From: Alphaproteobacteria bacterium
GTDB taxonomy: Bacteria > Pseudomonadota > Alphaproteobacteria > RF32 > CAG-239
DNA length: 64,000 nt
NCBI GenBank assembly: GCA_045644765.1
Contig: JAZRHM010000001.1
Coordinates: forward strand, 58,022 to 122,021
Direction of reading: 5' to 3'
Below are positions 4,240 to 25,888 of this stretch, piece by piece (the stretch's first letter is position 1; each line of letters begins with the position of its first letter). The translations under genes were made by a program, and so were the position numbers. A model generated the notes under the pieces. The model had not been told where the DNA came from. It ran no database searches and saw nothing but the letters and a program-made list of their open reading frames with translations.

Positions 4240-4316
4240 CGGATTGTAGTTCAGCCTGGTAGAACGCTTCGTTCGGGTCGAAGAGGTCGCTAGTTCGAAT
4301 CTAGTCAATCCGACCA
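4240..4316 (+). tRNA. tRNA-Pro (anticodon CGG)
   Basis: Hand-folded cloverleaf. Acceptor CGGATTG/CAATCCG. D-stem GTTC/GAAC. Anticodon stem CTTCG/CGAAG with loop TTCGGGT. T-loop TTCGAAT. Discriminator A plus encoded CCA. Confidence 0.85.
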
Positions 4317-4484: not shown

Positions 4485-5384
4485 TTAAGCTTTGAATGTT
4501 TTTAGTAATTTCAAAAAATATGGGGATGGATTATCTTTGTTTAGGGCTAAGCCATAGCCGATGTAGCACAAAGCCATATAATCAAGTTGTTTTAGCTCTA
4601 TTTTTGAAGTTGTCAATTTGTTATATTCCGTCAGCGTATCAATCGCCAATTTGCGGTCAACTTTGTAAAGCGGGAAAAAATCCTGATATTTGGGCATAAT
4701 AACCATGTTTCCAAAGTCAATAATGCCGGCGAGAATATCATCGCTTTCGGGATTGAGTAACAGATTAGAGCCGCTTAAATCGTTGTGGCACAGTGCTTTA
4801 TCGGTATTTGGCAAAGTCGGTTTATTGTAATCTAAATCAATTTTATGTGGCAATAAAGCTTCTCTGACACTGGCATAATCAAAATCTTCTCTTGTGCTAA
4901 CGTCCCAATTATCAATAGCCTCGGTCGGCTCCGGCATATTTAGCTTTTTATAATCAATTTGGTGCATTAAATGAAAAAACATCGCTAAATCTTGCGCCAG
5001 TTTAAGCTGTCGCTCCGGTATAATATTTTGATATAAAACGGCATAGTCGCTTTCCGGACGTCCGTCACAAATTTTACCATATATACGCTTTGAAACAGAA
5101 AACGGATAAGTGCCGTCAATCAGTTCAATTTTGTGGATCTTACCCTCAAAATACGGCATTAAATGCGGATAAATCGTATCAATTATCATTTTTTCGCGTT
5201 GCATCGTCTGCCAAATTATTTCCGCTTTCGGAAAGCGCACAATATAATCGTCGGCATAATATGCAACCGAACGCGAACCGCTTTGTAATCGAGTAATCTC
5301 CTTAATTCCTTTAAAACCGCTATCAGCCAAAATTTTGCGGATTAAATCAAGATTATCAGCCGTCTCTTTCGTTATATATGTCAT
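4485..5384 (-). CDS. Phosphotransferase of the APH/choline-kinase fold (aminoglycoside phosphotransferase-like), substrate unknown
   Basis: YIVRFPK (beta3 lysine), HNDLSGSNLLL (compare APH(3') HGDLGDSNIFV catalytic loop), IIDFGNM (DFG). Confidence 0.6.
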   Translation of the reverse strand: MTYITKETADNLDLIRKILADSGFKGIKEITRLQSGSRSVAYYADDYIVRFPKAEIIWQTMQREKMIIDTIYPHLMPYFEGKIHKIELIDGTYPFSVSKRIYGKICDGRPESDYAVLYQNIIPERQLKLAQDLAMFFHLMHQIDYKKLNMPEPTEAIDNWDVSTREDFDYASVREALLPHKIDLDYNKPTLPNTDKALCHNDLSGSNLLLNPESDDILAGIIDFGNMVIMPKYQDFFPLYKVDRKLAIDTLTEYNKLTTSKIELKQLDYMALCYIGYGLALNKDNPSPYFLKLLKTFKA

Positions 5385-16147: not shown

Positions 16148-16233
16148 TGGTAGGGGTGATGAGACTTGAACTCATACTCGCTGAGCGAACAAGATTTTGA
16201 GTCTAGCGCGTCTACCAATTCCGCCACACCCCC
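16148..16233 (-). tRNA. tRNA-Leu (anticodon CAA), type II with long variable arm
   Basis: Reverse complement GGGGGTGTGGCGGAATTGGTAGACGCGCTAGACTCAAAATCTTG...GAGTTCAAGTCTCATCACCCCTACCA. D-arm identical to E. coli tRNA-Leu. Anticodon loop CTCAAAA. One U-U mismatch in the anticodon stem and a G1-U72 pair. Confidence 0.75.
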
Positions 16234-21200: not shown

Positions 21201-21287
21201 TGGTGCTCTGAAAAGGACTTGAACCTTCACGAGAATTCTCTCACAAGTACCTGAAACTTGCGCGTCTACCAATTCCGCCACCAGAGC
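21201..21287 (-). tRNA. tRNA-Leu (anticodon CAG), type II
   Basis: Reverse complement GCTCTGGTGGCGGAATTGGTAGACGCGCAAGTTTCAGGTACTTGTGAGAGAATTCTCGTGAAGGTTCAAGTCCTTTTCAGAGCACCA. Perfect anticodon stem CAAGT/ACTTG, loop TTCAGGT. Encoded CCA. Confidence 0.8.
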
Positions 21288-24278: not shown

Positions 24279-24403
24279 AATCTACATTCTAAACGTATAT
24301 ATGACAGATGCAATAACTAAAAGTATTTACAAACAAAAAAGATATTGCATTTAGCGTCAAAAAAAATTATTATATGGTAAGTTGATTTTCATAGGAGATT
24401 TTT

Positions 24404-24577
24404 ATGACTAAAATTCCTTTAATAAAACCATTAAGTAAAGCTGCAGTAGGAAAACGTTTAAATGGTATATTCAGTATATTTCAAGCATTGAGTTTTGCTT
24501 TAGCATCTGCTTTTGTCTCTATCGTTTCCAATGCGAAAGAAGGGCTGACTAATCAAAATAATAAAGGTAGGGAATAA
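24404..24577 (+). CDS. Small ORF (57 aa) with RBS, below the ORF-track cutoff; hypothetical
   Basis: ggag 6 nt upstream of ATG 24404. MTKIPLIKPLSKAAVGKRLNGIFSIFQALSFALASAFVSIV... Confidence 0.3.
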   Translation: MTKIPLIKPLSKAAVGKRLNGIFSIFQALSFALASAFVSIVSNAKEGLTNQNNKGRE

Positions 24578-24585
24578 TATATATC

Positions 24586-24999
24586 ATGGAAAAATTTGAG
24601 ATAATTCCTGCAGAGTTTTACTTTGATAAAATTGGTGTTATTGTAAAAGTAGAATTAAATGAAGACCATGTTTTCAGAGGAGAACTGGTATATGATGGGC
24701 GCAATCAAATCATATTTAATCGCAATGATAAGAAATTTTTTCTTCTTACCCAAATAGCTCCTAATATTCGCAAACGCATATTAAAGAGCAAATATGTTAC
24801 AATTGCAGAATATTTCAATGATGAAATCATGCAAGCCTATGATATCAGTGTTCGCTTGATAGATGAAATTCCCGGCGAAGATAACTACATGGAAGAAATG
24901 CAAAAATATATTGAAAATCTTAAATCTGAATTAGGTGATGAAAAGTTTAACGAATTAAAAAGGCAAGCCATACATTCTTTTGATAAACTGATGCAATAG
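24586..24999 (+). CDS. Hypothetical protein (137 aa)
   Basis: ORF only; no family recognised. Confidence 0.45.
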   Translation: MEKFEIIPAEFYFDKIGVIVKVELNEDHVFRGELVYDGRNQIIFNRNDKKFFLLTQIAPNIRKRILKSKYVTIAEYFNDEIMQAYDISVRLIDEIPGEDNYMEEMQKYIENLKSELGDEKFNELKRQAIHSFDKLMQ

Positions 25000-25013
25000 A
25001 AAGCAAAAAATTA

Positions 25014-25193
25014 ATGATGGAATATTTAAAAAGAAAACTTTGTAAACTTAAACCATCTGATTTTGATGAAGTCAGATTTCCACGCTATTATGAAGAAAAC
25101 GGCACATTAATCAAAGAATGCGAAAATGGAGAAGTATGGGAAGTTGCCTTAGATAAAAAACATCATGAAATTTTATTAAAGAGGTTGAAATGA
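25014..25193 (+). CDS. Small ORF (59 aa), candidate antitoxin/partner of the downstream zeta-like kinase
   Basis: MMEYLKRKLCKLKPSDFDEVRFPRYYEENGTLIKECENGEVWEVALDKKHHEILLKRLK. Its TGA stop overlaps the ATG of the next gene (ATGA). Confidence 0.4.
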   Translation: MMEYLKRKLCKLKPSDFDEVRFPRYYEENGTLIKECENGEVWEVALDKKHHEILLKRLK

Positions 25194-25888
25194 GCAAACA
25201 AAATTGGTTGGTCATCATTGCCGGACCAAATGGTGCCGGAAAATCAACTTTTTATCACCAGATTTTACAATCTGATCCTTTATTTAAAAATGCACCTTTT
25301 GTTAATTTAGATAACTATGCCAAAGAAATGGTTGCCCAAAATGGTGGAACTACTGAAGATTACTTTATTCAGGCCGGGCGTAAAGTACGACAAAGTATTG
25401 ACAACTATTTTAAAAAAAAGAAAAGCTTTGTTTATGAAACCACATCTTCCGGTTTATCTCACCTTAAAATAATGGAAAATGCTCGCAATAGAGGCTACAA
25501 AGTAGCAACCATTTTTATCGGACTTTCAAAAGTAGAACTATCACATCTTCGTGTACAACAAAGGGTAAATGAAGGTGGCCATAACGTATCACCGGAAGAT
25601 ATTGAACGCCGTTTTCCAAAAGTAATTAAAAATTTTCCAAACATGTTGGCTCGTAGCGATATTGCAGCCGTTTTTGATAATTCGGGCAGAACCCCTTATA
25701 AATTAATTTTTTTAATGGACAAATACCATTTTCGTGTTTTTTACACATACCCTCGTTGGGTTAAAGAAGCAACCAAGGGAAGAAACACTAGTAAAAACTT
25801 TATTTTTGTTAATACAAATGATATTAAAGAAAACAAAAAAGAGTTTTTTACTAAAATTGCTAAGCAACTATTTTTAAATACAAAGTAA
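25190..25888 (+). CDS. Zeta-toxin/COG4185-family P-loop kinase (UNAG-kinase-like toxin fold)
   Basis: Walker A IIAGPNGAGKST. FVNLDNYAKEM. Signature GGHNVSPEDIERRF (GGHxVPxxxIxxR of the zeta toxin family). Confidence 0.7.
   Translation: MSKQNWLVIIAGPNGAGKSTFYHQILQSDPLFKNAPFVNLDNYAKEMVAQNGGTTEDYFIQAGRKVRQSIDNYFKKKKSFVYETTSSGLSHLKIMENARNRGYKVATIFIGLSKVELSHLRVQQRVNEGGHNVSPEDIERRFPKVIKNFPNMLARSDIAAVFDNSGRTPYKLIFLMDKYHFRVFYTYPRWVKEATKGRNTSKNFIFVNTNDIKENKKEFFTKIAKQLFLNTK

Follow-up and report, generated by a model that had tools for sequence, protein, structure and literature searches.

In a 64,000-nt stretch of an Alphaproteobacteria bacterium genome (GTDB lineage CAG-239; contig JAZRHM010000001.1, positions 58,022 to 122,021), hereafter the window, we identified two overlapping plus-strand genes that probably constitute a non-canonical type II toxin–antitoxin pair of the zeta/PezT type. 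The candidate toxin is a 232-aa short zeta-toxin-like P-loop kinase (25190-25888), and the candidate antitoxin is a 59-aa protein encoded immediately upstream (25014-25193). A sequence-only reading had earlier placed both at the end of a four-gene cluster next to dnaG and proposed a toxin–antitoxin or defence module. The positions of its open reading frames (ORFs), the Walker A motif of the kinase, the TGA stop codon within an ATGA and the dnaG neighborhood were all confirmed from the sequence. The conserved unit proved to be smaller: only the 59-aa ORF and the kinase belong to it, and the two genes ahead of them, encoding 57-aa and 137-aa proteins, are unrelated neighbors. Loci used for comparison are designated by L-numbers (L001, L003, etc.) throughout.

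The kinase matched the Pfam Zeta_toxin family (PF06414) over residues 4-165 (E 2.1e-13), its 50.6 bits lying above the family cut-off of 22.3. This was its best Pfam family by five orders of magnitude, and among the NCBIfam housekeeping kinase families none came near its cut-off. The AlphaFold2 (AF2) model, with an overall predicted local distance difference test score (pLDDT) of 83, is confident over residues 1-185, and its best Foldseek matches were PezT (2p5t), AvrRxo1 (4z8t) and zeta (3q8x/1gvn), with E values from 7e-8 to 8e-7. All three are validated toxin kinases, with polynucleotide kinases following close behind. Profile and structure thus agreed with the earlier naming of the protein as zeta-toxin-like. 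The Walker A motif GPNGAGKST occupies residues 12-20, and across 19 homologs reaching down to ~32% identity the invariant positions comprise G12-K18, T20, D41, G63, E83, R121, R125, G129-G130-H131, D157 and N164-S165, with R140 invariant or nearly so. In a profile alignment to the pRE25 zeta, K18 corresponds to K46, E83 to E116, R125 to R158 and R140 to R171, while D41 falls one column off D67. Judged by these alignments, the kinase belongs to the Zeta_toxin superfamily and its catalytic set is predicted to be complete, counterparts of the Lys, Asp, Glu and Arg all being recognizable.

The segment GGHNVSPEDIERRF (residues 129-142), which had been taken for a UNAG-kinase signature, turned out to be the conserved R-x5-H region of a short-kinase subfamily; as an Arg/His segment of that subfamily, it is not evidence for UDP-N-acetylglucosamine (UDP-GlcNAc) as the substrate. 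The kinase begins 5 residues before strand 1, without the N-terminal helical region of zeta, and it is the lack of both this region and the UDP-GlcNAc motif GTxR that led us to liken the protein to short kinases such as Rv0366c. At its other end, a C-terminal tail of ~45 aa (window 25750-25888; residues ~188-232), modeled with low AF2 confidence, is conserved in the kinases of the gut clade described below (YPRW...RKTxK...) and absent from plasmid kinases of 193-196 aa; some relatives are longer by another 40-90 residues. A partner–kinase fusion or frameshift in homologs of 275-320 aa was considered and rejected, as the extra length is either C-terminal or an unrelated N-terminal extension.

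The two genes meet at a coupling junction (25180-25193, plus strand) that can be read directly from the sequence: an AGAGG (25180-25184) lies 5 nt ahead of the kinase ATG, and the TGA of the 59-aa ORF (25191-25193) falls within the ATGA (25190-25193) spanning the kinase start. The earlier reading had given gaps of 8 nt or less among the last three genes, which stands for the 59-aa ORF and the kinase (-4 nt) and fails between the 137-aa gene and the 59-aa ORF (14 nt). A related gut metagenome-assembled genome (L001; GCA_045613125.1) carries the same four genes in the same place, with a kinase 91% identical to that of the window. In a comparison of the two (dS 0.60-0.78), the ratio of nonsynonymous to synonymous substitution rates (dN/dS) was 0.11 for the 57-aa gene, 0.025 for the 137-aa gene, 0.12 for the 59-aa gene and 0.06 for the kinase; all four genes are therefore under purifying selection. 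With its low dN/dS and an overlap that is kept in relatives, the 59-aa ORF is a real, conserved and translationally coupled partner of the kinase, as had been suspected. Of the two outcomes that the sequence-only reading had named as speaking against it, a kinase that matches a housekeeping family and small ORFs that no relative conserves, neither was obtained.

Beyond this close relative, the pair recurred in at least ten neighborhoods of uncultured human-gut Alphaproteobacteria, with kinase identity falling to 38% (counted as window/L001, L081, L003, L006, L009, L071, L072, L074 and L083, with a locus of Aureimonas, L076, additional). A 57-61-aa homolog of the 59-aa protein lies directly upstream of the kinase in every gut-clade relative examined. 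The 4-nt overlap between partner and kinase is found also in L001, L003, L006, L072, L081 and L083, and the other junctions are an 8-nt overlap in L009, a 2-nt gap in L074 and a 17-nt gap in L071. The surroundings of the pair change from locus to locus: mscL on one side and dnaG on the other in L081, a tRNA gene and a PHP-domain gene in L003, rsmA and a xerC-like gene in L006, a radical-SAM gene in L009, an Fe-ADH gene in L071, a META-domain gene and an acyl-ACP thioesterase gene in L072, gcrA in L074, and different radical-SAM surroundings in L083.

The 57-aa and 137-aa genes, by comparison, accompanied the pair only in L001 and L067, which represent the same or a sister species (the 86 matched DnaG residues of L067 are identical to those of the window); the 57-aa gene itself was found in L001 alone. 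In L081, the pair occupies the same site, convergent with dnaG, yet both upstream genes are absent and mscL precedes it. The site shared with L081 indicates that the pair is a long-standing resident next to dnaG and that the two upstream genes are a lineage-specific addition; the proposed four-gene cluster accordingly reduces to two. Among 56 dnaG loci from metagenomes, many of them human-gut assemblies, the pair lay beside dnaG in a single one (L067). No clean empty xseA-dnaG site was found among these loci, because synteny 3' of dnaG is rearranged (rpoD in L033, a permease in L015). The 137-aa protein was considered as a third component and rejected, being absent from L081 and the remaining loci; a 137-aa ORF in L071 is unrelated. 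A 107-aa weak relative of the 137-aa protein is encoded in L003 (4092-4412, minus strand; 28% identity over 61 residues, E 2e-6), divergent from the pair and separated from it by a tRNA gene.

The family of the 59-aa partner comprises 61 database clusters of ~58-60 aa; at 50% identity, a set of 1.84 billion proteins holds only 32 of its representatives, and the lengths of all members span ~57-72 aa. In the AF2 model (pLDDT 74), a short helix at the N terminus (MMEYLKRKL) leads into a predicted beta-meander of four strands over residues 24-57 with the core FPRYYEENGTLIKECENGEVWEVALD. Residues M1, E3, Y4, K6-R7-K8, P23, Y25, Y26, E27, E28, I33, E35, G39, D47 and E52 are invariant or nearly so, and E3, Y4, P23, Y25, Y26, G39 and D47 are invariant across all 61 clusters. 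The family signature, P-x-Y-Y ... G-x-[LV]-I-[KR]-E-x-x-[DN]-G ... V-x-[LF]-D, is present in the 59-aa protein. The partner matched neither Pfam nor NCBIfam, no cluster of its family has a Pfam domain, and a profile search of the PDB together with structure comparison returned no solved relative or fold match. Weak profile matches to large repeat proteins (P0207-P0209) were set aside as unrelated beta-hairpin repeats. The partner is usually less conserved than the kinase (83 vs 91%, 58 vs 71%, 45 vs 56% and 41 vs 53% identity in successive comparisons). No characterization of the family was found in the literature on COG4185, Zymomonas, Piscirickettsia and IncP zeta modules.

Homologs of the pair extend well beyond the gut clade. 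A tblastn search recovered kinase homologs on 613 plasmid records, and several of the best plasmid matches have a small 'hypothetical protein' ahead of the kinase with overlapping or abutting codons. Such partners measure 85 aa on Paraburkholderia pBPHYT01, 82 aa on Piscirickettsia plasmids (where the pair lies between IS6 copies), 131 aa on a Cupriavidus plasmid, 84 aa on a Burkholderia contaminans plasmid and 78 aa on Zymomonas pZM33. On the 41-kb conjugative E. coli plasmid pEC187_3 (NZ_CP061111.1; L088 3001-3842), an 83-aa protein (WP_000061334.1) precedes a 196-aa 'zeta toxin family protein' (WP_019842075.1), with the pair lodged between kleE and korA/parA/parB-like genes; near-identical pairs occur on ~27 Escherichia and several Salmonella and Klebsiella plasmids. 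The window kinase shares 36% identity (E 1e-31 to 1e-33) with these plasmid kinases, whose annotation reads 'zeta toxin family' or 'AAA family ATPase'. The C-terminal half of the plasmid partners, e.g., RPIYYGDDRYSDAVIKEYPDGTKQLVRFDDDDNEIIIEEL, matches FPRYYEENGTLIKECENGEVWEVALDKKHHEILLKRL of the window protein. Aligned with hhalign to the plasmid partners, the gut-clade partner profile gave a probability of 91.5% (E 8.7e-7) over residues 19-57, and in a HMMER search of ~10,800 ORFs the same profile retrieved the Piscirickettsia (E 2.7e-6) and Zymomonas (E 6.6e-5) partners. Used in turn as a tblastn query, the Piscirickettsia partner recovered 63 plasmid records, mostly from Escherichia, Salmonella, Klebsiella, Zymomonas and Burkholderia, and the partner of the chromosomal Aureimonas kinase (L076) belongs to the same family. 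The homology of both genes to the plasmid pairs identifies them as one old, unnamed two-gene module that is common on plasmids. The earlier suggestion of a new variant therefore holds insofar as the partner family is unnamed and apparently unstudied, but the pairing is not peculiar to this genome, being common on proteobacterial plasmids.

The two genes can also be found apart or in other combinations. The partner occurs without a nearby kinase on an 8.8-kb E. coli plasmid (L089 2321-2674, beside a higA-like gene) and on a Caballeronia plasmid (L092 1486-1716), and these two genes look like orphan 'antitoxins'. On Zymomonas pZM39 (L086 1361-2067), all that is left of the partner ahead of an intact kinase is its final 42 codons, exactly the beta-module; this remnant is identical to the pZM33 copy, unannotated and without an obvious start codon. 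Each examined kinase of this partner type keeps at least the beta-module in front of it. Related kinases are preceded by other partners, as is typical of toxin–antitoxin families: ParD_like ribbon-helix-helix (RHH) proteins stand before more distant relatives in Planctomycetota and Novosphingobium loci (L012, L014), and in Acinetobacter and on a Ti plasmid of Agrobacterium the preceding small proteins are unrelated. In a Verrucomicrobia locus (L077 2501-3276), a ParD_like protein whose C-terminal segment reads PYPHYE..GLLIRI.ADGKRTVGRF stands ahead of a kinase in decay, with the P-loop intact, the catalytic Asp replaced and a frame that degenerates after ~55 residues. Exchangeable partners, orphan partners, a decayed kinase and a partner that diverges faster than its kinase all fit toxin–antitoxin biology. 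The corresponding segment of the L012-type ParD_like proteins, PYPHYE..GLLVRI.ADGKRTVGRF, resembles the partner motif; with an hhalign probability of 39-52% (P 1.5e-4 at 52%) and HMMER E values of 0.07-0.3, these marginal statistics make the ParD_like link to the partner family a tentative lead only. Separately, on the Phaeobacter plasmid pP63_c (L093 1016-1204), a 62-aa ORF that lacks annotation runs into the start of a 246-aa zeta toxin family gene and has no clear similarity to the window partner.

Taken as a toxin–antitoxin module, the pair could work as follows. The 59-aa protein would be translated first from a shared mRNA, with translation of the kinase coupled to it through the ATGA overlap, and would bind and silence the kinase, mainly through the beta-meander; we favor the beta-module as the binding part because no other part is conserved throughout the partner family. 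Lineage-specific contacts may come from the N-terminal segment, which varies: it is MxEYLKRKF in the gut clade, a longer helical half in the plasmid proteins and possibly an RHH domain in some phyla. Once free, the kinase would phosphorylate an essential small metabolite and so arrest growth, its substrate being perhaps a nucleotide-sugar or an NAD-like nucleotide and probably not UDP-GlcNAc bound in the manner of zeta. Having no DNA-binding domain, the 59-aa protein would not autoregulate the operon as PezA and ParD-like antitoxins do. The module itself appears to be old and mobile, with homologous pairs on conjugative and on insertion sequence (IS)-rich plasmids, and in the gut clade it seems to have been kept by purifying selection while changing position. 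A bolder combination of claims is held only tentatively: that the beta-meander is a new antitoxin fold whose mechanism differs from the helix-insertion block of epsilon, PezA and ng_epsilon1, that the substrate is not UDP-GlcNAc, that in this reduced-genome gut clade the pair has become a domesticated, vertically inherited growth-control switch, and that on enterobacterial IncP-like plasmids it serves as an unrecognized addiction system.

Several observations weigh against a toxin–antitoxin function. The dN/dS values of the pair resemble those of housekeeping genes in the same comparison (0.05 for dnaG, 0.07 for xseA), which would fit a domesticated cellular function too; between L081 and the window the kinase is 67% and DnaG 76% identical, a pattern that looks like vertical retention; and the four genes show no deviation from the G+C content of the window (33.6%), so their composition is native. 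No helix-turn-helix (HTH), RHH, AbrB or Phd domain was matched in the partner by Pfam or NCBIfam, although epsilon likewise has no DNA-binding domain and the lack of one thus does not exclude the type II class. In L072, the partner (56% identity) is better conserved than the kinase (44%), an exception to the usual order. Finally, ETTSSG (E83-T-T-S-S-G88) stands in place of GTxR and the associated UDP-GlcNAc-binding residues of zeta (G117-T121, E100), with only E83 and T85 corresponding to zeta residues, so that the classical zeta mechanism cannot be assumed. The main rival explanation builds on some of these points: the pair would be a domesticated, non-toxic enzyme with its subunit, the kinase acting on a cellular metabolite or macromolecule and the small protein serving as a regulatory, specificity or chaperone subunit. 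The housekeeping-like dN/dS, native composition and missing DNA-binding domain all count toward it, together with strong purifying selection over a long retention, the same dnaG-adjacent site in two species 24% apart in DnaG, housekeeping neighbors, and the extra C-terminal tail conserved in the kinases of the clade. Domestication sits poorly, however, with plasmid homologs of both genes in stable-inheritance or IS-flanked contexts, with a neighborhood that differs in almost every lineage, with partner types exchangeable among related kinases, with orphan partners and a decayed kinase, and with the failure of any curated housekeeping kinase family to match; on balance we regard it as improbable.

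The defence role offered in the sequence-only reading found little to sustain it. Under such a role, phage infection would release the kinase and the cell would be killed or arrested by abortive infection, and many type II toxin–antitoxin pairs do counter phage (general knowledge; reviewed in PMC10532202). The neighbors in the window are housekeeping genes, neither the window nor L001 has defence genes near the pair, and no phage-family association was found. The kinase has a weak PADLOC match to mad3 (E 1e-5), but this reflects generic P-loop similarity, as do its PADLOC matches generally, and the small proteins have no PADLOC match at all. Some gut-clade copies lie beside strain-variable regions or integrase-like genes (L006-L008, L009/L010); even so, we rate anti-phage abortive infection as distinctly unlikely. 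Slighter still is the chance that the protein is a polynucleotide 5'-kinase of RNA or DNA repair rather than a small-molecule kinase. It would account for the profile match to Pnkp1 (4xrp, E 3e-5), the Foldseek match to the Clostridium thermocellum polynucleotide kinase (4gp7, E 6e-7) and a match to the PHROG polynucleotide kinase (E 0.0085). The fold matches nevertheless cover only the common P-loop kinase core, Zeta_toxin leads the Pfam families by the margin given above, no phosphatase, ligase or Hen1 partner is present, and proteins annotated as zeta toxin family have the same type of partner and the same arrangement of genes. A zeta/PezT-type toxin–antitoxin pair remains our favored reading.

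The locus is flanked on one side by xseA and an M23 peptidase gene and on the other by dnaG, a yqeY-like gene and ftsEX. Of the two neighbors outside the conserved module, the 57-aa gene (24404-24577, plus strand) is preceded by an AGGAG at 24393-24397 and separated by 8 nt from the 137-aa gene (24586-24999, plus strand). Neither product matched a family in Pfam, NCBIfam or PADLOC profile searches, and the 137-aa protein had no match in a phage-family (PHROG) search either. A 19-residue hydrophobic stretch in the 57-aa protein, IFSIFQALSFALASAFVSI (mean Kyte-Doolittle value 1.95), suggests that it may be a small membrane protein. The 137-aa gene, the most strongly constrained of the cluster, is shown by its dN/dS to be a real gene. 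Searches for repeats, Rfam families, tRNAs and direct repeats in the flanks gave nothing that marks the locus, and a promoter and terminator scan across it performed no better than shuffled controls. Elsewhere in the window lie three tRNA genes, Pro-CGG (4240-4316), Leu-CAA (16148-16233) and Leu-CAG (21201-21287), apart from which no Rfam family reaches its gathering threshold within the window.

Some comparison loci have features of their own around the pair. In L003, a tRNA gene (4577-4652) stands immediately ahead of it. In L071 (1004-2772), it is preceded by the unrelated 137-aa ORF and by a 452-aa protein that weakly matches AHH nucleases (E 0.03), and these two could be a polymorphic toxin and immunity pair. 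In L006-L008 (6000-7660), the sequence 3' of the pair depends on the sample: a 111-aa gene in some and a 198-aa gene in others, with a xerC-like recombinase gene beyond it, a pattern suggestive of a variable region.

The window copy is unremarkable in itself; the novelty lies in recognizing the partner family and how far it reaches, from gut Alphaproteobacteria to enterobacterial plasmids. According to a 2023 survey of PezT/zeta homologs, most lack a recognizable antitoxin and almost none have been studied outside Firmicutes (PMC10532202); the survey also lists unnamed upstream clusters, among which the present family may figure. Our analysis supplies one concrete missing partner family, a beta-module of ~40 residues, absent from Pfam and without a solved structure, that pairs with short zeta-like kinases from human-gut Alphaproteobacteria to conjugative E. 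coli, Salmonella and Klebsiella plasmids. If a toxin–antitoxin function is confirmed, the module would represent a new structural solution for the inhibition of zeta-type kinases, a new substrate class for such kinases could emerge, and several dozen clinical and environmental plasmids (the 63 records) would carry an unannotated addiction module, of which the pEC187_3 pair may be an example. A smaller consequence concerns annotation, as the 59-aa gene is usually uncalled or labeled hypothetical.

Compared with characterized systems, the window pair is not a canonical epsilon/zeta, PezAT, EzeT-type fusion or ng_epsilon1/ng_zeta1 system, since the defining features of each were looked for and are not found here. 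With epsilon/zeta (pSM19035, pRE25) and the PezAT of S. pneumoniae it shares the Zeta_toxin fold, the catalytic Lys/Asp/Glu/Arg and a coupled upstream antitoxin. It differs from epsilon/zeta in that the partner has no epsilon three-helix bundle (PF08998; hhalign against the pRE25 epsilon gave E 0.83), and neither an omega regulator nor any third regulator gene is conserved with the pair. From PezAT it differs in that the 59-aa protein has no PezA HTH domain by Pfam or NCBIfam and has a predicted beta-meander fold. These comparisons uphold the earlier remark that the small partner is unlike epsilon and PezA. The ng_epsilon1/ng_zeta1 pair of the N. gonorrhoeae conjugative plasmid is likewise a proteobacterial zeta-type pair with a non-epsilon antitoxin of ~60 aa (PMC5923241, PMC2848598); however, ng_zeta1 is a topologically rewired protein of 401 aa with an OB domain, ng_epsilon1 takes the form of an extended helical peptide when bound, and the partner-family profile matched nothing in the PDB. 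AvrRxo1-ORF1/Arc1 of Xanthomonas provides the second-best structural match (4z8t, E 1.5e-7, TM score 0.65) and the example of a zeta-like kinase that acts on NAD, not on UDP-GlcNAc, and is neutralized by a small partner, but AvrRxo1 is a much larger secreted effector, and no PDB chain matched the window partner.

Closer parallels come from PezAT-Mtb (Rv0367c-Rv0366c) and from the plasmid pairs. Rv0366c is a short zeta-type kinase of M. tuberculosis that is bacteriostatic on overexpression (PMC6362051), and like the window kinase it has neither the zeta N-terminal region nor GTxR, the UDP-GlcNAc-binding motif of zeta and PezT (PMC6362051), with its antitoxin gene again upstream. Compared by published description, K18, S19, D41, R125 and H131 of the window kinase parallel the Lys, Ser, Asp, Arg and His of Rv0366c (PMC6362051), and the R125-x5-H131 spacing equals that of R116/H122 in this experimentally toxic protein (PMC6362051). 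The antitoxins differ: Rv0367c is a 129-aa ParD_like RHH protein, and the window partner has no RHH or PF11903 match; PF11903 partners stand only before distant relatives of the window kinase (L012, L014). The plasmid pairs, for which no characterization was found in the literature searched, share the gene order and overlapping stop/start codons of the window pair. The N-terminal half of their partners (76-85 aa) is an additional helical part, MTPEQE..FW..F...D.G.AA, in place of the 20-residue MMEYLKRKL segment of the window protein, and their kinases lack the ~45-aa tail. Across all these contexts, genomic and plasmid alike, the arrangement is the generic one of type II systems: small co-directional genes, antitoxin first, translationally coupled and consistently paired.

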